Origin: Escherichia coli
Lineage (GTDB): Bacteria > Pseudomonadota > Gammaproteobacteria > Enterobacterales > Enterobacteriaceae
Assembly: GCF_044324785.1 (NCBI RefSeq)
Contig: NZ_CP172127.1
DNA length: 64,000 nt
Direction: 5' to 3' (one strand)
Both the position numbers and the translations under genes were made by a program. The notes beneath the pieces were generated by a model that worked only from the letters and a program-made list of their open reading frames with translations, was not told where the DNA came from and searched no databases. Each line of letters begins with the position of its first letter. Position 1 is the first letter of the stretch. Shown here in pieces: positions 3,577-51,077 of the stretch.

Positions 3577-6380
<2,804 letters not shown>

Positions 6381-6384
<4 letters not shown>

Positions 6385-7325
6385 GCGTGGGCTCCTTCAT
6401 GACGACGAATGCGCGGGTCCAGCGCGGCGTTGAGCAAATCGACAATCAAATTACAGACCACAAAAACCACCACCATCATCAGCGTAAAGCACTGGATCAC
6501 CGGATAGTCACGGTTAAAAATCGCCGACACCGCATAGCGCCCGACGCCCGGCCAGGCAAAGATGTTTTCGATAATCATCGTCCCGCCAATCAGTTCGCCA
6601 ATGTGCATCCCCACGGCGGTGATCATCGGCAGCGAGGCATTGCGCAGAATATGACGACGCTCGGTCTGTTTGTCATTCAGGCCGCGTAGCCGTGCCCAGG
6701 TGACGTGACGCTGACCGGCGACGTCCAGCATACTGGCGCGCAGCAGCCGCGCGTTAATCGCCAGCGACATAAAGGCAATGGAAACCGCAGGCAAAATGAT
6801 GTGCTGCCAGCCGCCGTAGCCCATCGCGGGTAGCCATTGCAGATATACCGAAAACGCCATCACCAGCAAAAACGCCAGCCAGAAGTTGGGCATCGATACG
6901 CCGAGAAACGCGATGAAACGTACGGCGAAATCCGGCAGACGATCGCGATGGCGCGCCGCCCAGATACCGAGCGGTACGGAAGTGAGCAGAATTAACACCA
7001 GCGCGGCACCTGCAAGTTCCAGCGTGGCGGGCAGGAAGTTCAGCATATCGTCCAGCACCGGGCGTTGGCTGGCGAATGAGATACCAAAGTCAAGATGCAG
7101 CGCCTTCCACAACCAGGTGCCGTACTGGACATACAGCGGCTGATCCAGCCCCAGCATGGTGCGTGTAGAGGCCAGCATCTCCGGCGTCGGCGGCAGGTTA
7201 GACAGACGCAGATAATCGAGCGCCGGGTCGCCGGTGCCGAGGCGCAGCATCAGAAAAATGATCACCGAGGCGGCGAGCACCATCGGGATCAGCAGCAGAA
7301 AGCGGCGTAATACGTAACGCAACAT
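6381..7325 (-). CDS. nikB: Nickel ABC transporter permease NikB
   Basis: 314-aa permease; 1-nt overlap with nikA stop. Confidence 0.92.
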
Positions 7326-8899
7326 TAAGGTTTCACCGGTTTAATCTGTTCGAACGGAATTTCGGTGGCGATCGGCGCGTAGGGGATGTTACCCAGCTCC
7401 GGTTTTGATACCACCATCATTGAGATGTAACTGATAGGCAGATAAACCGCCTCGTCATGCAGACGGGTCAGAATGTCGCGATACAGCGCCTGACGTTGCG
7501 TTTCGTCATGGGTTGCCAGCACTTCGCCGATCTCTTTATCAATCAGCGGCTTGTCGGCTAATCCTTGCTGTGCCTGGAAATCAGCGTGCGACGGTACGCG
7601 CATTGAACTCAGGAAGGCGTGTGGATCGTATGGCGCGCCCCAGGTGCGATGGAAAATCATGCCAAAACGACCGTCGCGCTGACGAGCATAGATACTGCTC
7701 TCTTCTTCGCCAATCAGTGAGACATCTGCGCCAATCTGGCGCATATCAGCCTGAATGATTTCCGCCATCGATTTGCTTAACGCATCGGTGCCGATGAACG
7801 ACAGTTCAATGCGCAGCGGCTGACCATTTTTCTCGCGGATGTCTTTGCCCGCAGGCAACGTCCAACCGGCTTTTTCCAGCAACGCTTTCGCTTTCTGCGG
7901 ATCGTACTGGCGCGGTTTCAGGCCGAGGTTGGCATAGGGCACAGAAGGAGCAAACAGGGTGTCGGCGACCTGCTGGGTGCCATACAACGCGTTATCAATC
8001 AGCGATTTTTTGTTTACCGCGTAATTGAGTGCTTCACGTACGGCCAGCTCGTTGGTGGGGGCTTTGGCGGTATTGAGTGCCAGCATCACGGTTTCGATCG
8101 GCTGTGACAGTTGGGTGTGGTAAGCCGGATTCTGGCTAAAGCGAGCGAAGGTATCGAGCGGTAATAACCCTTCGTTTCCGTACAGCAGGTCGATATCGCC
8201 AGTTTCAAACGCCACCGCGCGGGTAGTCGGGTCCGGGATGACGTTAAAAGTGATCTTCTTAATCGCCGGCTTCTCGCCCCAGTAGTTTTCGTTACGGACA
8301 AAGACATCGTACTGATTCAGTTTCGATTCCTGCAAAACCCACGGCCCGGTGCCAATTGGCGCTTTAATCCCGTTCATGGTTTCGTGGTTTTTAAACTGCG
8401 AGGGGGCGATAAAACGGAAAGGACGGGGCAGGGCCAGTTCTTGCAGGAAAGGATAGTAGGCGCTTTTCAGGGTGATTTGCAGCTCTGTTTTACTGAGTGC
8501 TTTGACATCAACAATCTGGTTTGCCAGCTCCAGCCAGGCGTGACGTTGACGGTTATCGAGCACTGCGCGGAAGTTTTCTGCCGCCGCCTCTGCATCAAAC
8601 GGTTCGCCGTTGGAGAATTTCACGTCATCACGCAGGGTGAAGGTCCAGGTTTTACCATCTTCTGAATGAGTCCAGCTTTTTGCCAGCCACGGGATCACCG
8701 AACCGTCTGCCTGATATTTCACCAGCGGTTCATAAACCATGCTCTGGGCGAACATCTGGTTAGGCGTGTAAAGGTGCGGGTTTAGTGGCCCGACATTCAC
8801 CGGCCAGGCGGTGGTGATTTCATCTGGTGCAGCGGCATGGACGATAAAAGACGCACAAGCCAGCAGCGCAAATAGAGTGCGGCGGAGTGTGGAGAGCAT
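7325..8899 (-). CDS. nikA: Periplasmic nickel-binding protein NikA
   Basis: 524 aa with signal peptide ([25 protein letters not shown]); family 5 solute-binding protein; first gene of nikABCDE. Confidence 0.93.
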
Positions 8900-29976: not shown

Positions 29977-30723
29977 ATGCATTATGCCGTTGTCGTCATG
30001 CTTGAACTGCTTTGCTGTATTCACGCTTATCGCTCCGGACAAGAGCGATACTGGATTTTTATTATCTTCTGTTTTCCGGTGATTGGCTGCGTGGCGTATT
30101 TCGTCATGGTTATGCTGCCTGAAACGGGCGCTGACCGTCACGGGCGTACTTTGCTGATGCGCCTGCAGGACAAAATCAGCCCGGAACGCCACCTGCACAA
30201 ATTAACCGAAGAGCTGGCGATTGCCGAGACCAATCAAAACCATTATGCGTTAGCTAACGAACTGGCGCGCCTTGGGCGTTATCACGAAGCCGTTCCCCAT
30301 TATCAGCAGGCGTTAAGCGGAATTTTCGCCCATGAAGCGGTAATGATGTTAAGCCTGGCGCAGGCGCAATTTGCTATTCAGGAGTTCGCCGCCTGTCAGC
30401 AGACGCTGGAAGATGTGATGCGTTATAACCCCGATTTTCAGTCGGCAGACGGGCATTTGTTATTTGCCAGAGCGTTAGCCGCACAAGAAGAATACGCTGA
30501 TGCGGAAAGTGAGTTTGAAGTGTTGGTTTCTTATTACCCCGGCCCGCAGGCGCGTATTTACTATGCGGAAATGCTGGCGAAAATGAGTCGGTTACGTGAA
30601 GCCAACGAGCAGTATGTTGCTGTGGTTGATACGGCTAAACGCTCAAGAGCGCATTATAGAAAACACTACCGGGAATGGATTAAGACCGCCAATGAACGGT
30701 TGAAGCAGAGTGTGGTGCAATGA
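29977..30723 (+). CDS. Hypothetical membrane protein: N-terminal two-TM domain resembling the PLD/cardiolipin-synthase N-terminal domain, plus a C-terminal TPR-like helical domain
   Basis: 248-aa ORF with two hydrophobic helices and a W...FP.IG...Y pattern (WIFIIFCFPVIGCVAYFV), followed by alanine-rich repeats with TPR-like periodicity. I do not recall a gene between livF and ugpB in K-12. Confidence 0.6.
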   Translation: MHYAVVVMLELLCCIHAYRSGQERYWIFIIFCFPVIGCVAYFVMVMLPETGADRHGRTLLMRLQDKISPERHLHKLTEELAIAETNQNHYALANELARLGRYHEAVPHYQQALSGIFAHEAVMMLSLAQAQFAIQEFAACQQTLEDVMRYNPDFQSADGHLLFARALAAQEEYADAESEFEVLVSYYPGPQARIYYAEMLAKMSRLREANEQYVAVVDTAKRSRAHYRKHYREWIKTANERLKQSVVQ

Positions 30724-39188: not shown

Positions 39189-39683
39189 TTATGAACAACT
39201 GTCCATGATTTCGTTTAAGAATGAAGAGAAATCACTAAACGAACTGAATATATTTTCGGTGCCAATATTATCTCTAATTTCAAAAAAGTTACTTTTAATG
39301 TCATAAGTAAATATTGAAATGCTATCATCACCGATCACTAACCGTTCTTGTAGATCAGGGTTTATGAAATCATCATTATTTCTATAAAATTCATTTACGG
39401 CAAAAAGGTTTTTAACTGAAGGTTCTGGAATCGAGAGGCTAAATAATCGTAATCCATTAGCTTCGAATCCATCCATTGCTCTTAAAAAAGTAAGATAATC
39501 AGGTTGATTCTTAAAAAGAATACTAACTTCATTACATAACTTCTCCAGGCAATTAGTTGAATTAGAATTAAATTCTATTTGGATTATACTTTCAATAAAT
39601 GATTCCTTGAGCGGTGCTTCAAATGGATGGTCTAAATCATTCATCATTTTTTTTAATTTATTTATTTGGGTTTTAGTCATCAT
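39189..39683 (-). CDS. yrhA: YrhA, uninterrupted; candidate immunity protein for the upstream Hcp-nuclease
   Basis: 164-aa ORF, low GC, immediately downstream of yhhZ with an ATGA stop/start overlap. In K-12 I recall this gene as a pseudogene disrupted by IS1; no IS1 sequence is present here. Confidence 0.6.
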   Translation of the reverse strand: MMTKTQINKLKKMMNDLDHPFEAPLKESFIESIIQIEFNSNSTNCLEKLCNEVSILFKNQPDYLTFLRAMDGFEANGLRLFSLSIPEPSVKNLFAVNEFYRNNDDFINPDLQERLVIGDDSISIFTYDIKSNFFEIRDNIGTENIFSSFSDFSSFLNEIMDSCS

Positions 39684-40858
39684 TTTGTGGGTTCCATAAT
39701 ATTTTTCATGAGAGGATAAATTGAGCCAGATGGAATGGCCCAGGGAGTGATTTTGCTTTCACCTACTAATATTCCCTTAGCTATTCGTGATTGCATGTTA
39801 GTAAAAACTTTATGATATGGTTCGTTTTCGATTAATACTAAATTTTCGAAATCATTAGTACCACCATCATCTAGAGATAGTTTATGGTGAACATTATAAT
39901 TTAGAGGAACATTGCCCTTTCTCATTCTTAAAAGGTCTTCGGCGTTGAATCTTCCAGATGCTTCGGAGGTTTTTGCAAGTTTGATAAGAAAATTTTTTCT
40001 TACAGTTTTATTAAACTCCTTTCGTAAGTTAGCTAAGTCTTTTGAAGGTCTCTTAATGTATATTATTTCTATTATGTCTATACCATCAAGAAGTTTTTGT
40101 TGACCTCTAAGTTTGCCTAAGTAACTATTTATTTCTGTATATGTATCAACATTAGAACGCTTTGTTAAAAGAATAGATGCTGTTGCTATCGCTATGCCCG
40201 CTGTTTTTTCATTTAGTATTTGATCATAGCCTTTGATTGCATCTCCACCCAGTTTTTCCGCAGTATCTCTGAATCCTTCAATGTTCCCATTGTATACGCC
40301 ACCAGCAGCAAGTAGCCTGCCAACAGCTTCGCTGTTTAACGTTTTTAAACCATTATTTGTTTTGTTTTTTGAATTTGGTAAAAACAAGCGGTTATAATTT
40401 TCAGGGAGTGCCAAATAGCTGAACTCGGTGTTAGTGATAAGATGTTGGCAGAGGATAAATTCATAACTAACAGTTATTGTTTCTGTATCCAGCTGGTTTT
40501 CAATGATCTGGTGATGAATAGCCGATAAAAAAGCGCCTCTTAGTTGTATATAATAATACTTTTCCCATCTACCAAATCTATTTATTCGATAGAAGTCAAA
40601 TCCCATAAATAATTGTTCATTATTGTTAATGGAATTAATAAATAATGGAGTGCTTTTATCAATTAATTTACAAAATGTTATACCATGGAACTGTGAACCA
40701 AGCCCCGTATTAGAAATACTATTTAAGAGTGAGAATGTAAATATTTCATTCTCATGCCCGCTCTGCCAGCGATTACCTATAGATTCAGTAGTCCCACAAC
40801 CTGCGGAGATGCTTCCTTGTTGTTCTCCCGTTACTGTCAGATAAATAATATTACTCAT
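39680..40858 (-). CDS. yhhZ: Hcp (T6SS tube protein) fused to a C-terminal HNH / colicin-DNase-like nuclease domain
   Basis: 392 aa. The N-terminal 120 aa is Hcp-like; the C-terminus carries an HNH pattern, NVHHKLSLDDGGTNDFENLVLIENEPYH (His-His codons at 39884..39889 on the minus strand). Low-GC gene. Confidence 0.75.
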   Translation of the reverse strand: MSNIIYLTVTGEQQGSISAGCGTTESIGNRWQSGHENEIFTFSLLNSISNTGLGSQFHGITFCKLIDKSTPLFINSINNNEQLFMGFDFYRINRFGRWEKYYYIQLRGAFLSAIHHQIIENQLDTETITVSYEFILCQHLITNTEFSYLALPENYNRLFLPNSKNKTNNGLKTLNSEAVGRLLAAGGVYNGNIEGFRDTAEKLGGDAIKGYDQILNEKTAGIAIATASILLTKRSNVDTYTEINSYLGKLRGQQKLLDGIDIIEIIYIKRPSKDLANLRKEFNKTVRKNFLIKLAKTSEASGRFNAEDLLRMRKGNVPLNYNVHHKLSLDDGGTNDFENLVLIENEPYHKVFTNMQSRIAKGILVGESKITPWAIPSGSIYPLMKNIMEPTK

Positions 40859-45659: not shown

Positions 45660-47000
45660 GTGACTACATTAACGCTTGTTTTAACAGCAGTAGGGTCTGT
45701 TTTACTGCTGCTGTTTTTAGTCATGAAGGCGCGTATGCACGCTTTCCTGGCTTTGATGGTGGTGTCCATGGGGGCTGGCCTTTTTTCCGGTATGCCGCTC
45801 GATAAAATCGCAGCGACGATGGAAAAAGGGATGGGAGGCACCCTCGGCTTTCTGGCGGTGGTTGTCGCCCTGGGAGCCATGTTTGGCAAGATCTTACATG
45901 AAACCGGCGCAGTCGATCAGATTGCCGTCAAAATGCTCAAATCCTTCGGTCACAGCCGCGCGCATTATGCCATCGGCCTTGCGGGGCTGGTCTGTGCGCT
46001 GCCGTTGTTCTTTGAAGTGGCGATTGTTCTGCTGATTAGCGTTGCTTTCTCAATGGCGCGCCACACCGGTACGAACCTGGTGAAGCTGGTAATCCCATTA
46101 TTCGCAGGCGTGGCGGCAGCGGCTGCGTTCCTGGTGCCGGGGCCTGCGCCAATGCTGCTGGCATCGCAGATGAACGCCGACTTTGGCTGGATGATCCTGA
46201 TTGGCCTGTGTGCGGCAATTCCGGGAATGATTATTGCCGGGCCGCTGTGGGGTAATTTCATCAGCCGCTACGTGGAGTTGCATATTCCTGACGACATCAG
46301 CGAACCACATCTCGGTGAAGGCAAAATGCCGTCCTTCGGATTCAGCCTGTCGCTGATCCTGTTGCCACTGGTGCTGGTGGGGCTGAAAACCATTGCCGCG
46401 CGCTTTGTGCCGGAAGGCTCTACCGCTTACGAATGGTTCGAGTTTATTGGTCATCCGTTTACCGCGATTCTGGTTGCTTGTCTGGTAGCAATTTATGGCC
46501 TGGCAATGCGTCAGGGTATGCCAAAAGACAAAGTGATGGAAATTTGTGGTCACGCGCTGCAACCGGCGGGGATCATTCTGCTGGTGATTGGTGCAGGCGG
46601 CGTGTTCAAACAGGTGCTGGTTGACTCTGGCGTAGGTCCGGCACTGGGCGAAGCGTTAACCGGCATGGGCCTGCCGATTGCCATCACCTGCTTCGTGCTG
46701 GCAGCTGCAGTGCGCATCATTCAGGGTTCTGCCACCGTTGCCTGTTTAACGGCGGTGGGACTGGTGATGCCGGTTATTGAACAACTGAACTATTCCGGAG
46801 CGCAAATGGCGGCGCTGTCGATTTGTATCGCCGGTGGTTCGATTGTTGTCAGCCACGTTAACGACGCCGGTTTCTGGTTGTTCGGTAAATTTACCGGCGC
46901 GACTGAAGCCGAAACACTGAAAACCTGGACCATGATGGAAACCATCCTCGGCACTGTCGGTGCTATCGTTGGGATGATTGCGTTCCAACTGTTGAGTTAA
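45660..47000 (+). CDS. gntU: Low-affinity gluconate permease GntU (GntP family)
   Basis: 446-aa polytopic transporter with GTG start, 4 nt after the gntK stop. Confidence 0.9.
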   Translation: MTTLTLVLTAVGSVLLLLFLVMKARMHAFLALMVVSMGAGLFSGMPLDKIAATMEKGMGGTLGFLAVVVALGAMFGKILHETGAVDQIAVKMLKSFGHSRAHYAIGLAGLVCALPLFFEVAIVLLISVAFSMARHTGTNLVKLVIPLFAGVAAAAAFLVPGPAPMLLASQMNADFGWMILIGLCAAIPGMIIAGPLWGNFISRYVELHIPDDISEPHLGEGKMPSFGFSLSLILLPLVLVGLKTIAARFVPEGSTAYEWFEFIGHPFTAILVACLVAIYGLAMRQGMPKDKVMEICGHALQPAGIILLVIGAGGVFKQVLVDSGVGPALGEALTGMGLPIAITCFVLAAAVRIIQGSATVACLTAVGLVMPVIEQLNYSGAQMAALSICIAGGSIVVSHVNDAGFWLFGKFTGATEAETLKTWTMMETILGTVGAIVGMIAFQLLS

Positions 47001-47011
47001 TTACTGCGACA

Positions 47012-47055
47012 AATTACTGCGAGCTTGCTCGCAGTAATTCATTTCTCTTTTCTCC
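47012..47055 (+). terminator. gntU intrinsic terminator
   Basis: AATTACTGCGAGC / GCTCGCAGTAATT near-perfect palindrome followed by CATTTCTCTTTTCTCC. Confidence 0.7.
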
Positions 47056-47139
47056 TGTCTTCATCTTTTTGATCTCTCTCGCAAATTTACCTGCTAATAA
47101 TCCGTTCTAATCACTGCCTAAAGATCGCAGGAGATAAAG

Positions 47140-49236
47140 ATGGAAAAGCACGGAGCTGAATTGCTTTTACAGCGGATGTTAGGAAATACCACCGCTACTT
47201 TCAGGGAAGGGCAATGGGAAGCCATAGATGCAGTGGTTAATCAGCGGCGAAAACTGCTGGTTGTACAGCGCACCGGCTGGGGGAAAAGTGCCGTGTACTT
47301 CATCGCCAGTAAAATCTTCCGAGATCGCGGCGCTGGCCCGACAATTATCATCTCTCCTTTGCTTGCCCTGATGCGTAACCAGGTTGCCGCCGCTGAACGG
47401 TTAGGTATTACGGCTGAAACGTTGAATTCTACAAACAGGGAAGAATGGCAGCGCATTAGCGATAAGTTGCTGCAAGGTGAGGTCGATTGCTTGCTGGTTT
47501 CCCCGGAACGATTGGCAAACCAGGACTTTATCGAAACGGTTTTATATCCTATAGCCGATCGTATTGGCTTGCTTGTGGTCGACGAGGCGCACTGCATCTC
47601 TGATTGGGGCCACGATTTTCGCCCGGATTACCGACGTATATTAGATATTTTGCGCCAACTGCCTGCGAATACCCCTGTTCTGGGTACAACCGCGACAGCG
47701 AATAACCGTGTTGTTGAGGATATCCGTCAGCAATTGGGTGACATTGTGATTCAGCGTGGAACGCTGGCTCGCGAAAGTTTGGCGCTTGATGCCTTAGTCT
47801 TAGGAGAACAGTCATCCCGTCTGGCATGGTTAGCAACGGTTATCCCTCAGTTTTCCAAATCGGGAATTGTTTATACCCTGACGACTCGCGATGCTGAACT
47901 TGTCGCCGAGTGGTTAAGGAAAAATGGTATCAGTGCATTTGCTTACTACAGCGGCGTGACTTGTGAAGGCGCGGAAGATTCTAATACTGCCAGGGAATAT
48001 CTGGAGCAGGCACTGCTGGCAAATAAAATCAAAGTGCTGGTCGCGACGACGGCATTAGGTATGGGGTTTGATAAACCTGATTTAGGTTTCGTCATTCATT
48101 ATCAGATGCCGGGGTCTATTGTCGGTTACTACCAACAGGTGGGGCGTGCCGGTCGTGCTATAGATTCCGCAGTTGGCATATTGCTTTGTGGTGGTGAAGA
48201 CCGCGCTATTCATCAATTCTTCCGTGAAAGCGCCTTTCCTGCGGAGGCGCAAATTCATGAAATACTCAACGTACTTAGCGAGAATGACGGTCTTACCCTA
48301 CGAGGCATTGAACAACGGACGAATCTTCGTTATGGGCAAATAGAAAAAGCACTGAAATTATTGGTAGCGGAAAATCCATCGCCTGTGGTGTATACCGAGA
48401 AATTATGGCGCAGAACTATCGTCAGTTTTTCTCCTGATCATGAACGAATTAACCATTTGATGAATCAGAGAAAAAGTGAGCTGGCAGACGTTGAAAGCTA
48501 TATCACGACCAAGGAGTGCAAAATGCAATTTCTGCGCCGTGCACTCGATGAGCCAAGTGCCGAACGTTGTGGTAAATGTAGCAGTTGTCTTCAGCATCCG
48601 TTATTGTCGCCCGACATTGATAGCGGCTTACTCCATGCGGCAAATTTATTTATTAAACACGCTGACCTGCCGTTAAATCTCAATAAACAGGTGGCAGCTG
48701 GGGCTTTTACGCAATACGGATTTAAAGGGAACTTGCCTGCGGGTTTACAAGGATCTACGGGGCGAATCCTTTCTCGTTGGGGAGATTCCGGGTGGGGAAA
48801 GCAGGTAGCACAGGAGAAAAAAACGGGGCGCTTCAGTGATGAGCTGGTAGAAGCATGTGCGGAAATGGTTCGCCAACGCTGGAATCCGCATCCTGAACCA
48901 ACCTGGGTATGCTGCGTTCCTTCATTAAGGCACCTCGACCTGGTTCCTGATTTTGCCCGGCGACTGGCGGCGAAACTTGGCTTACCTTTTATTGATGCCA
49001 TTGAAAAAGTCGTGGACAATCCACCGCAGAAAATGCAGCAAAACCGTTTTCACCAGTGTCAAAATCTCGACGGGGCGTTTGTGATTACCCCTCCTTTGAT
49101 GCCAGGTCCGGCGTTGCTGGTTGACGATATCGTGGATTCTGCATGGACGCTGACAGTTCTGACAGCACTGTTACGCCAGGCAGGTTGCCCGACGGTTTAT
49201 CCTCTTGCCCTTGCTTCTACCTCGGTAAAAAATTGA
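47140..49236 (+). CDS. RecQ-like SF2 DNA helicase fused to a C-terminal ComF/GntX-type phosphoribosyltransferase-fold domain
   Basis: 698 aa. Walker A TGWGKS (47272..47289); DEAH box with RecQ signature VVDEAHCISDWGHDFRPDY (DEAH at 47581..47592); GTTATA; YYQQVGRAGR; Cys cluster CKMQ...CGKCSSC. The C-terminal 180 aa carry the PRTase motif LLVDDIVDSAWTLT (Asp-Asp codons from 49123). AGGAG Shine-Dalgarno 8 nt upstream. Confidence 0.85.
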   Translation: MEKHGAELLLQRMLGNTTATFREGQWEAIDAVVNQRRKLLVVQRTGWGKSAVYFIASKIFRDRGAGPTIIISPLLALMRNQVAAAERLGITAETLNSTNREEWQRISDKLLQGEVDCLLVSPERLANQDFIETVLYPIADRIGLLVVDEAHCISDWGHDFRPDYRRILDILRQLPANTPVLGTTATANNRVVEDIRQQLGDIVIQRGTLARESLALDALVLGEQSSRLAWLATVIPQFSKSGIVYTLTTRDAELVAEWLRKNGISAFAYYSGVTCEGAEDSNTAREYLEQALLANKIKVLVATTALGMGFDKPDLGFVIHYQMPGSIVGYYQQVGRAGRAIDSAVGILLCGGEDRAIHQFFRESAFPAEAQIHEILNVLSENDGLTLRGIEQRTNLRYGQIEKALKLLVAENPSPVVYTEKLWRRTIVSFSPDHERINHLMNQRKSELADVESYITTKECKMQFLRRALDEPSAERCGKCSSCLQHPLLSPDIDSGLLHAANLFIKHADLPLNLNKQVAAGAFTQYGFKGNLPAGLQGSTGRILSRWGDSGWGKQVAQEKKTGRFSDELVEACAEMVRQRWNPHPEPTWVCCVPSLRHLDLVPDFARRLAAKLGLPFIDAIEKVVDNPPQKMQQNRFHQCQNLDGAFVITPPLMPGPALLVDDIVDSAWTLTVLTALLRQAGCPTVYPLALASTSVKN

Positions 49237-50438
49237 TGAATCTTTCAGCCAATGCACAAGCGACTCTCCTGCTAACCAGCGATTTTTCTCGCGCGGCGGC
49301 GAGTGAGTATAAACCTCTTAGTAATAGTGAATGGGGGAAGTTTGCATTATGGCTGAAGCACCAACGTATCAGTCCCGCCGATCTTCTGGTACCGCAACCG
49401 CAAGAGAAACTTACAGGCTGGAGCGATCCGCGTATTTCTCAGGAGCGTATTCTTGGCTTGCTGGCGCGTGGTCATAGTCTGGCGTTGGCGGTAGATAAGT
49501 GGCAACGCGCCGGATTATGGATCTTAACCCGCGGAGATGCCGATTATCCCGTTCGCTTGAAAAACCGATTGCGAACGGATGCTCCTCCCGTTTTATTTGG
49601 CTGCGGGAATAAAGCATTATTGCAAGCGGAAGGTATGGCGATTGTTGGCTCGCGAGATGCTCCGACTGACGATTTGCGCTATACCCAACAACTGGCAGCG
49701 AAACTGGCCCAACAGGGGATTTGCGTTATCTCTGGTGGTGCGCGAGGTATTGATGAATGTGCAATGGCGTCGGCACTGGAGGCCGGGGGAACTGCCGTTG
49801 GCGTATTAGCTGATAGCTTGTTAAAAACGAGCACGTTAGTGAAATGGCGTGAAGGGCTTATAGCAGGCAACCTGGTGTTGATTTCACCGTTTTACCCAGA
49901 GGTACGTTTCACTGTCGGCAATGCGATGGCGCGGAATAAATATATTTATTGCCTTGCTGAAAGCGCAATGGTTGTACGTGCGGGAATGACCGGTGGAACG
50001 ATAACCGGAGCGATGGAGGCGTTAAAACATCAGTGGCTGCCTGTTCTGGTTAAACCAAATCAGGATGTGCAATCAGCCAATTCACGATTAGTAGAAAATG
50101 GGGCGTCATGGAGTGCTGAACAGGCTGAGAATGTGACGATCAGACTGCCAGATGTTCCTGGGCTGATGTATGACAGAGCACTCCGTAACGCTCAACCAGA
50201 ATTGTTTTCGCTGCTCGAAGATGACGCAAATTACGCAGTAATGCCCGCGCATACCCCTGTCGATTTTTATCAACTCTTTGTGGCGGAACTGGCGATCCTT
50301 GCAAAGGAATCGATAAGTATTGAAAGGCTGGCGTCTTGTACTGGTTTAACCATCGAACAAATTAGTGTGTGGCTGAACCGCGCAGAAGAAGAGGGAAGGG
50401 TTATCCGATTGGGCGAAGGTCATTATCAGTTCAGGTAA
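49236..50438 (+). CDS. DprA/Smf-like (SLOG Rossmann) protein with a C-terminal winged-helix-like region
   Basis: DprA core motifs AIVGSRDAPTDDL, ISGGARGIDECAM, NAMARNKYIYCLAE and VVRAGMTGGT. Start chosen at the ATG sharing one base with the upstream TGA stop (400 aa); an in-frame ATG at 49143 would give 431 aa. Confidence 0.8.
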   Translation: MNLSANAQATLLLTSDFSRAAASEYKPLSNSEWGKFALWLKHQRISPADLLVPQPQEKLTGWSDPRISQERILGLLARGHSLALAVDKWQRAGLWILTRGDADYPVRLKNRLRTDAPPVLFGCGNKALLQAEGMAIVGSRDAPTDDLRYTQQLAAKLAQQGICVISGGARGIDECAMASALEAGGTAVGVLADSLLKTSTLVKWREGLIAGNLVLISPFYPEVRFTVGNAMARNKYIYCLAESAMVVRAGMTGGTITGAMEALKHQWLPVLVKPNQDVQSANSRLVENGASWSAEQAENVTIRLPDVPGLMYDRALRNAQPELFSLLEDDANYAVMPAHTPVDFYQLFVAELAILAKESISIERLASCTGLTIEQISVWLNRAEEEGRVIRLGEGHYQFR

Positions 50439-50440
50439 TA

Positions 50441-50478
50441 AAACAGGTGCCGCGTCTGGTTGTGTGCAGCACCTGTTT
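50441..50478. terminator. Hairpin between the DprA-like gene and convergent yhgN
   Basis: AAACAGGTGC / GCACCTGTTT 10-bp inverted repeat with an 18-nt loop, between two convergent stop codons. Confidence 0.45.
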
Positions 50479-50483
50479 GAACC

Positions 50484-51077
50484 TTACCCCTTCATCCACA
50501 TTCGAATCCCGTCGAGGAACATCTGGGTTGCCATCATCACCAGAATCAATCCCATCAGGCGTTCAAGTGCATTCACCCCTTTCTCGCCGAGCAGACGTAA
50601 AAATAGCGAAGACTGTAGCAGGATGACAAAGGTGCCACCCCAGGCCAGCAGCAGAGCAATTACCAGATGTCCCATCTGATTCGGGTACTGATGAGACAAC
50701 AACATCAGCGTGGCGAGAATAGTCGGCCCGGCGACTAACGGAATTGCCAACGGCACGATAAACGGCTCTTCACCTGCCGGAAGCCCGCTGCTATTTCCTG
50801 AAGCACTGGGGAAAATCATCTTAATGGCGATCAGAAACAGAATGATGCCGCCAGAAATGGAGACGGTTTCTGCCCGCAGGCTAAGAAATGCCAGAATTTT
50901 CTCACCCGCAAACAGGAACACCAGCATCACCAGGAGAGCAATAAGCAACTCTCGCACCATGATTGCCCGCCGTCTTTTCGGTTCAGTATGTTTCAGTACG
51001 GACATGAAAATAGGTAGGTTTCCGAGCGGATCCATAATCAGGATCAATAAAACTGCTGCAGAAATGATTTCATTCAT
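50484..51077 (-). CDS. yhgN: MarC-family inner-membrane protein YhgN
   Basis: 197-aa hydrophobic ORF adjacent to asd. Confidence 0.85.
   Translation of the reverse strand: MNEIISAAVLLILIMDPLGNLPIFMSVLKHTEPKRRRAIMVRELLIALLVMLVFLFAGEKILAFLSLRAETVSISGGIILFLIAIKMIFPSASGNSSGLPAGEEPFIVPLAIPLVAGPTILATLMLLSHQYPNQMGHLVIALLLAWGGTFVILLQSSLFLRLLGEKGVNALERLMGLILVMMATQMFLDGIRMWMKG

Follow-up and report, generated by a model that had tools for sequence, protein, structure and literature searches.

One question raised by this locus is whether a DprA-like gene that lies directly behind a helicase gene in Escherichia coli encodes the housekeeping DNA-processing protein of the cell or a specialised partner of the helicase, and at which of two in-frame codons its translation begins. 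The gene is located in a stretch of 64,000 nucleotides of the E. coli chromosome (contig NZ_CP172127.1 of assembly GCF_044324785.1; hereafter the window, to whose first nucleotide positions refer unless another locus is named). A previous, sequence-only reading of this DNA had described an open reading frame (ORF) at 49143..50438 on the plus strand, encoding 431 aa and overlapping by 94 nt the helicase ORF at 47140..49236, and this was confirmed. We assign a probability of about 0.92 to the following interpretation: the DprA-like gene is psyrA (= rqlI), its product has 400 aa and is translated from the ATG at 49236, and this protein neutralises the toxic PsyrT (= RqlH) encoded upstream, the pair forming a toxin-antitoxin module of the abortive-infection-type kind. 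The earlier proposal of a specialised paralogue recruited to a cassette therefore stands as regards a paralogue tied to the helicase gene, but not as regards the novelty of the cassette, since gene and cassette are those of the published RqlHI/PsyrTA toxin-antitoxin and anti-phage system.

The identity of the gene was established by profile searches and by comparison with the published operon. The PADLOC profile PDLC03927 (PsyrA) matched the protein with 665.7 bits (E=6.3e-201), residues 1-400 aligning with profile positions 1-397 of 398. The PADLOC PsyrT profile matched helicase residues 3-697 at positions 5-687 of 689 (E=0, 1067.8 bits). Residues K49, D148 and D663 of the window helicase (the last one within DDIVD, i.e. 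DIVD663), which were the targets of mutation in the published study, occupy the positions published for RqlH. In addition, the cloning primers used by Russell & Mulvey could be located at 47140 (start of RqlH), 49236 (where RqlH stops and RqlI starts), 50196 (codon 320 of RqlI) and 50438 (stop of RqlI), in a mapping that tolerated errors in the machine-read primer table. These residue positions and primer sites indicate that the window carries the same genes as rqlHI of the extraintestinal pathogenic E. coli (ExPEC) strain F11, where the rqlH-rqlI operon was studied by Russell & Mulvey in 2015 (PMC4670107). The psyrA gene is placed directly downstream of psyrT with a 1-nt overlap, and the psyrT-psyrA arrangement recurs in all eight non-E. 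coli contexts sampled. PHROGs returned generic DprA-like and helicase families only, and the product name given to psyrA in RefSeq is 'DNA-processing protein DprA'.

The composition of the partner protein was consistent with this assignment. Pfam matches in the helicase were DEAD (residues 23-194), Helicase_C (239-340) and, weakly, RecQ_Zn_bind (443-484) and Pribosyltran (605-683), the last one within the phosphoribosyltransferase (PRTase) domain, whose motif LLVDDIVDSAW corresponds to PsyrT residues 658-668. The NCBIfam family recQ_fam was matched with 252.8 bits, above its cut-off of 219.8, and the NCBIfam cut-off for RecQ orthologues was not reached by the window helicase.

The start codon was analysed next to the reading frame of the helicase. 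As the sequence-only reading had noticed, there are two in-frame starts, and the second ATG (49236-49238) is codon 32 of the long form and shares its A with the helicase stop codon TGA (49234-49236), giving the overlap TGATG. The start had been considered ambiguous, a view that we do not maintain: both comparative and experimental evidence place it at 49236. The alignment comprised representatives of 119 homologue clusters, all of them full-length and with 48-98% identity to the query. In 118 of these clusters (48-72% identity, many genera) the proteins begin with MN(L/I)(S/T)xxAQATLLLT at the column of ATG 49236, and the 31-residue extension is present in the E. coli cluster only. At the Citrobacter, Vibrio cholerae and Marinobacter loci no ATG, GTG or TTG was found in frame between the conserved ATG and the next upstream stop. 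The overlap of the DprA-like gene with the helicase stop measures 1-4 nt in the eight non-E. coli contexts, and the PADLOC PsyrA profile starts at the second ATG. On the experimental side, a FLAG-RqlI construct numbered 1-400, whose primers map to 49236 and 50438, was fully functional (PMC4670107). Hence, the true psyrA start is the ATG at 49236 and the 431-aa form is an annotation artefact. The TGATG arrangement suggests, from the sequence, translational coupling of the two genes.

It has to be considered whether a 431-aa product, or a second isoform whose E. coli-specific extension is read from another frame of the PRTase region, is nevertheless made from 49143. RefSeq/PGAP uses the upstream ATG in every E. 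coli record inspected (the window, L001 and L003-L007), and ATG 49143 together with the open frame is kept in six of the six E. coli loci compared. This upstream ATG falls, however, within two codons of the PRTase motif, GCA TGG (Ala-Trp), and its conservation within E. coli can be put down to constraint on the overlapping helicase/PRTase codons. The 93-nt overlap contains a single nucleotide polymorphism across the six loci, which is silent in the helicase frame but changes an amino acid in the frame of the extension, and this points in the same direction, weakly, as n=1. Together with the restriction of the extension to one cluster, the lack of upstream in-frame starts in the other genera, the limits of the PsyrA profile and the activity of the 400-aa construct, this makes a genuine 431-aa product very improbable, and the long form in the E. 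coli RefSeq records looks like a systematic start mis-annotation.

A second question is the relationship of psyrA to the canonical dprA. The sequence-only reading had anticipated that the housekeeping dprA/smf would be a second, unlinked copy. This was borne out in strain N3, the closest complete genome (99.8% identity over 47000-50600), where the canonical dprA is found in the order def-dprA-smg about 140 kb from psyrA. Of the 5426 complete E. coli genomes, 5425 contain the canonical gene and 1650 contain psyrA. The Pfam DNA_processg_A domain and the RefSeq product name would fit a DprA/Smf orthologue with a part in natural transformation or RecA loading, and this candidate was tried and rejected: PsyrA reached 102.2 bits with TIGR00732 (cut-off 191.15) and 80 bits with NF008007 (PRK10736; cut-off 495), could be aligned with the chromosomal DprA of E. 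coli along no more than 82 residues (37% identity), lies outside def-dprA-smg, and is accessory and not core. The probability that psyrA is the DprA/Smf orthologue of the cell is thus negligible; with a core, unlinked dprA in the genome and both equivalog cut-offs failed, PsyrA is a specialised paralogue of DprA and not the product of the housekeeping dprA/smf. As a separate observation, the canonical dprA of strain N3 (L002 20036-21162) is annotated as frameshifted, with ORFs of 218 and 151 aa, which may reflect either a sequencing error or a genuine loss.

The domain architecture of PsyrA was studied with an AlphaFold2 (AF2) model built from 58 homologues, which had a mean predicted local distance difference test (pLDDT) value of 85 and a predicted template modelling (pTM) score of 0.71. 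The DprA Rossmann core proposed earlier was clearly recognised: Pfam DNA_processg_A (PF02481) matched residues 89-292 in the 400-aa numbering (120-323 when counted from the upstream ATG) with E=3.9e-50 to 4.7e-50, the model gave a high-confidence Rossmann part at residues 95-295, and the Pfam family SLOG LDcluster4 (1.4e-11) overlapped the DNA_processg_A match and was found in 58 of 58 family members. Foldseek searches against the PDB placed first the three-domain DprA of R. palustris (3MAJ; E=1.4e-17, 415 alignment columns), followed by ShosA (8ZVA) and the S. pneumoniae DprA (3UQZ) with ~304 columns each, an extent that includes the SAM domains of these two proteins. Further down was the H. 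pylori DprA (4LJK; Rossmann only, ~205 columns), the DprA structures ranging from E=1e-17 to 1e-11; distant matches were molybdenum cofactor (MoCo)-carrier and LOG proteins (E=1e-6 to 1e-4). PsyrA has, therefore, a SLOG-superfamily Rossmann fold of the LOG/MoCo-carrier-like type, and this likeness accounts for the label 'MoCo-binding domain' used in the 2015 paper.

The region that precedes the Rossmann fold had been described as about 95 residues long and as an extra part of the protein. The length agrees with the ~88 residues of the 400-aa protein and not with the 119 of the 431-aa form; the term extra was not appropriate, given that a stretch of ~65-95 residues likewise precedes the Rossmann fold in canonical DprA and in ShosA. 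The region stands where the S. pneumoniae DprA, the R. palustris DprA and ShosA have their SAM domain. In sequence, PsyrA is homologous to DprA and ShosA from residue 86-87 onwards, which corresponds to residue 81 of the R. palustris DprA and 92-93 of ShosA, and residues 1-94 of ShosA are its SAM domain (PMC11961720). This indicates that the pre-Rossmann region is normal in size and position and is not an addition. A profile of this N-terminal domain gave no match to PDB sequences even at E=10, and Pfam found nothing in this region in any of the 58 family members. The mean frequency of the majority residue was 0.78 in the N-terminal domain, 0.80 in the Rossmann domain and 0.38 in the linker, whose insertions account for the length range of the family (400 to ~450 aa). 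At the C-terminal end, the winged-helix-like tail noticed from the sequence was supported by the model (pLDDT ~90), with a helix at 344-355, a strand at 360-361, helices at 362-369 and 373-385, and strands at 389-392 and 396-399. Pfam gave only an insignificant helix-turn-helix (HTH) match for the tail of the window protein; in some family members weak matches to TrmB, MarR and HTH_29 were obtained, and DprA_WH was found in 4 of 58 (best 1.2e-3). A winged-helix tail belongs to the usual plan of DprA. The coordinates of the domains, of the remaining features of the locus and of the contexts in other genera are collected in the following table.

Table. Features of the psyrT-psyrA locus and settings of the gene pair in other genera.
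Feature	Sequence	Coordinates	Strand	Remarks
Terminator-like hairpin 3' of gntU; upstream insert boundary	window	47012..47039	+	12-bp stem, T-rich tail
psyrT / rqlH, toxin, 698 aa	window	47140..49236	+	RecQ-like superfamily 2 (SF2) helicase, RecQ zinc-binding region, C-terminal ComF-like PRTase
PRTase domain of PsyrT/RqlH, residues 509-698	window	48664..49233	+	limits from PMC4670107
Spurious 31-codon N-terminal extension	window	49143..49235	+	inside PRTase coding region; 431-aa RefSeq/PGAP form
psyrA / rqlI, 400 aa	window	49236..50438	+	ATG start, TGATG overlap with psyrT stop
N-terminal helical domain, residues 1-92	window	49236..49511	+	in position of DprA/ShosA SAM domain; AF2, six helices, pLDDT 76-92
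DprA-type Rossmann (SLOG-superfamily) domain, residues 93-295	window	49512..50120	+	Pfam and Foldseek
Variable linker, probably disordered, residues 296-342	window	50121..50261	+	pLDDT <50 at 305-340
C-terminal winged-helix domain, residues 343-400	window	50262..50435	+	AF2, pLDDT ~90
Hairpin between convergent psyrA and yhgN	window	50441..50478	.	minimum free energy -18.9 kcal/mol, z = -3.27 versus shuffles
gntU-yhgN site, as in E. coli	L008, L009 (Citrobacter)			
hsdM-hsdS-[psyrT-psyrA]-hsdR	L010, L011 (Vibrio cholerae)	L010: 3905-7329		integrase nearby
hsdM-hsdS-[psyrT-psyrA]-hsdR	L012 (Marinobacter)	3893-7254		
hsdM-hsdS-[psyrT-psyrA]-hsdR	L014 (contig with a protein named for Shewanella xiamenensis)	4860-8350		integrase nearby
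Decayed hsdS-[psyrTA]-hsdR arrangement	L016 (2.1-Mb contig)	4525-8812		hsdS and hsdR fragments
psyrTA adjoining large NACHT protein	L018 (Providencia rettgeri)			
Stand-alone pair	L015 (Brenneria)			
Stand-alone pair	L017 (Rheinheimera)			

The function of the pair has been characterised genetically. In strain F11 rqlH is co-transcribed with rqlI, and RqlH without RqlI causes SOS induction, filamentation, DNA-damage sensitivity and mutagenesis (PMC4670107). The PRTase domain is needed for this toxicity, which is abolished by D663A, and is insufficient alone; co-immunoprecipitation of RqlH and RqlI is lost when RqlH residues 510-698 are deleted (PMC4670107). RqlI 1-320 fully neutralises RqlH and RqlI lacking its first 84 or 129 residues is inactive, the HTH/winged-helix tail being dispensable for the inhibition (PMC4670107). 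The homology to DprA, the separate canonical dprA and the parallel with ComFA/ComFC were already pointed out in that work (PMC4670107). Later, PsyrTA, 'also called RqlHI', was included by Millman 2022 among the anti-phage toxin-antitoxin systems, with a DprA homologue as the antitoxin and a psyrA deletion that was not obtained; Rousset 2022 made the same link for the DprA-PRTase pair ShosTA (PMC9122126), and several E. coli surveys count PsyrTA as a common defence system.

On this basis, the module works as follows. The unchecked PRTase domain of the RecQ-like 3'-5' helicase is genotoxic. PsyrA, translated from ATG 49236 and probably coupled through TGATG, binds the helicase protein in a PRTase-dependent manner and neutralises its toxicity, the N-terminal and Rossmann domains being required for this and the winged helix not, as the experiments with the F11 genes showed. 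Phage defence was reported for a PsyrTA system by Millman 2022. The N-terminal domain may be the toxin-contact module. Infection might free the toxin through loss or titration of the antitoxin, by analogy with ShosTA, or through DNA sensing, and the E. coli allele may defend against some phages.

The evidence on how RqlI acts also bears on a different role, in which RqlI/PsyrA is mainly a working partner of the helicase on DNA, with putative single-stranded DNA (ssDNA) binding like that of DprA, and resolves lesions or intermediates made by the PRTase or recruits recombination proteins, a type IV-like relation as proposed for ShosA. In the model of Russell & Mulvey the PRTase alters a nucleotide that RqlI and the helicase resolve, and helicase-dead RqlH mutants are toxic even with RqlI (PMC4670107). 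Moreover, ShosA neutralises ShosT without a strong interaction, via its DNA-binding surface (PMC11961720), and PsyrA retains the DprA Rossmann domain and the winged helix. The PRTase-dependent co-immunoprecipitation, on the contrary, argues for direct binding, and the winged helix is dispensable (PMC4670107). The domains of the window PsyrA carry little net positive charge (+3, +2 and -3). We regard a role of this kind as rather unlikely, and neutralisation of the toxin by direct contact remains our preferred explanation.

Several points weigh against the interpretation of the pair as a toxin-antitoxin module with an antitoxin starting at 49236. The comparison of Shine-Dalgarno sequences did not separate the two candidate ATGs, both starts giving -3.1 kcal/mol against the anti-Shine-Dalgarno sequence with no good match at either. 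Russell & Mulvey favoured cooperative DNA processing over a pure toxin-antitoxin relation, the deletion of both rqlH and rqlI had no fitness cost, and many Gram-positive bacteria carry RqlH without RqlI (PMC4670107). Finally, with the native PsyrTA of E. coli NILS69 no protection from the tested phages could be detected, whether in the original host or after expression in K-12.

The genomic setting of the pair was then compared among E. coli genomes. In the window the gene order is yhhY-yhhX-yhhW-gntRKU-[two genes]-yhgN-asd-glgBX; gntU ends at 47000, and psyrT-psyrA follows between gntU and yhgN. Among the 5426 complete E. coli genomes, the 1650 that contain psyrA always have it as a single chromosomal copy (nucleotide identity of at least 97.3%), and nearly all the others align to the 47000-50600 query by the flanks only. 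The two genes are therefore an accessory insert: psyrT-psyrA is an accessory two-gene module at gntU-yhgN in ~30% of E. coli. Nucleotide differences between the window allele and the other alleles of this species amount to 1-3%. The hairpin at 50441-50478, with an A-run 5' and a U-run 3' of the stem as read from the sequence, probably terminates transcription in both directions and marks where the insert is bounded downstream, although it was not called by a consensus terminator scan, for which its long loop was given as the cause.

Degraded copies of the pair were observed in some E. coli records. In E. coli O157:H7 EDL933 (L005 377-2501) the helicase/toxin gene is a pseudogene with a frameshift and an internal stop and the DprA-like antitoxin gene is intact, a state typical of the usual decay of toxin-antitoxin pairs. 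In another record (L006 336-3501) the helicase gene is interrupted by ISEcp1 with blaCTX-M-15; the PRTase-coding 3' fragment, labelled 'ComF family protein' in RefSeq, and the intact DprA-like gene remain. The DprA-like gene of strain wlxctx60 (L003 2408-3703) carries a premature stop, at codon 298 in the long-form numbering and residue 267 of the 400-aa protein, while its helicase-PRTase partner gene has an intact annotation; a toxin thus appears to persist alongside a truncated antitoxin. This stop lies inside the Rossmann domain and outside the 31-codon extension, and hence provides no evidence against the long form.

The settings outside E. coli are a defence-island context. In four of the eight contexts sampled psyrT-psyrA is nested in a type I restriction-modification operon, with hsdS on one side and hsdR on the other, the same hsdS-hsdR position that prrC occupies in the EcoprrI locus. 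PsyrTA could accordingly be conceived as a second-line guard of type I restriction, in which the DprA-like protein or the restriction complex would keep the PRTase inactive, to be released by an anti-restriction factor or ssDNA of a phage; the stand-alone gntU-yhgN copy of E. coli would be a decoupled remnant. We consider this proposal doubtful; if true, the decoupling of the E. coli copy could explain the lack of defence in the NILS69 study. In the Providencia rettgeri locus (L018 1-4318) psyrTA was observed directly downstream of a NACHT protein, 1468 aa or longer, and a protein of 480 aa without Pfam match, and the NACHT neighbour may be an NLR-type defence system.

Two other ORFs of the window, away from the pair, deserve mention. 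The 248-aa ORF at 29977-30723 (plus strand), between livF and ugpB, had weak matches of the tetratricopeptide repeat (TPR) type (YbgF-like, 29 bits), and PADLOC gave no match for it; its place is occupied in strain N3 by a Phd/Doc toxin-antitoxin pair, and the spot looks like a small variable site. The 392-aa ORF at 39680-40858 (minus strand) shares its length and its position near yhhY with an N3 gene annotated as an Hcp1-family type VI secretion effector (tssD), which is followed in N3 by yrhA and yrhB. Judged by its ORF coordinates, it looks like a putative orphan Hcp-fusion module a few kb upstream of psyrT-psyrA.

In terms of biology little is new here, since the genetics of the pair were worked out in 2015 under the name RqlHI, and defence-system finders recognise it as PsyrTA. 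The practical value of the analysis is a correction: the protein has 400 aa and starts at 49236, as opposed to the 431-aa product of RefSeq/PGAP, and the name 'DNA-processing protein DprA' masks an antitoxin paralogue that is not a competence or recombination mediator.

PsyrTA can finally be compared with the known systems that it resembles. Canonical DprA/Smf proteins (3MAJ, 3UQZ, 4LJK) share with PsyrA the Rossmann fold and, in the case of the R. palustris DprA, the layout of N-terminal domain, Rossmann fold and winged helix; PsyrA differs in its scores below the orthologue cut-offs, in its genomic context, in being accessory rather than core, and in an N-terminal domain without detectable sequence similarity to PDB entries. 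The ComFA/ComFC pair resembles the module in that a helicase and a ComF-type PRTase are functionally linked to a DprA-type protein, a connection made by Russell & Mulvey and by Iyer et al.; here, in contrast, a RecQ-like helicase forms one protein with the PRTase, nothing ties the module to DNA uptake, and toxicity, not competence, is the phenotype that has been published. ShosTA (PMC11961720; PMC9122126) likewise combines a DprA-like antitoxin with a PRTase-containing toxin that leads to DNA damage and filamentation, and ShosA (structures 8ZVA and 9VZO), the second-best structural match, has a ~94-residue N-terminal SAM domain before the Rossmann fold. ShosT is, however, a stand-alone PRTase/pyrophosphatase, whereas the PRTase of PsyrT is fused to a RecQ-like helicase; ShosA has a disordered destabilising tail instead of the winged helix of PsyrA; and ShosT and ShosA show no strong interaction, whereas RqlH and RqlI co-immunoprecipitate. 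Membership of PsyrA in the ShosA family was rejected, since the matches of the ShosA profiles are confined to residues 85-272 (94.8 bits) and residues 88-257 (30.3 bits), versus 665.7 bits for PsyrA, and the partner is a helicase-PRTase fusion. With PsyrTA/RqlHI (Sberro 2013; PMC4670107; Millman 2022) nothing substantive differs in the window: profiles, gene order, stop/start overlap, residue numbering and primer sites all coincide, and it is the same system.

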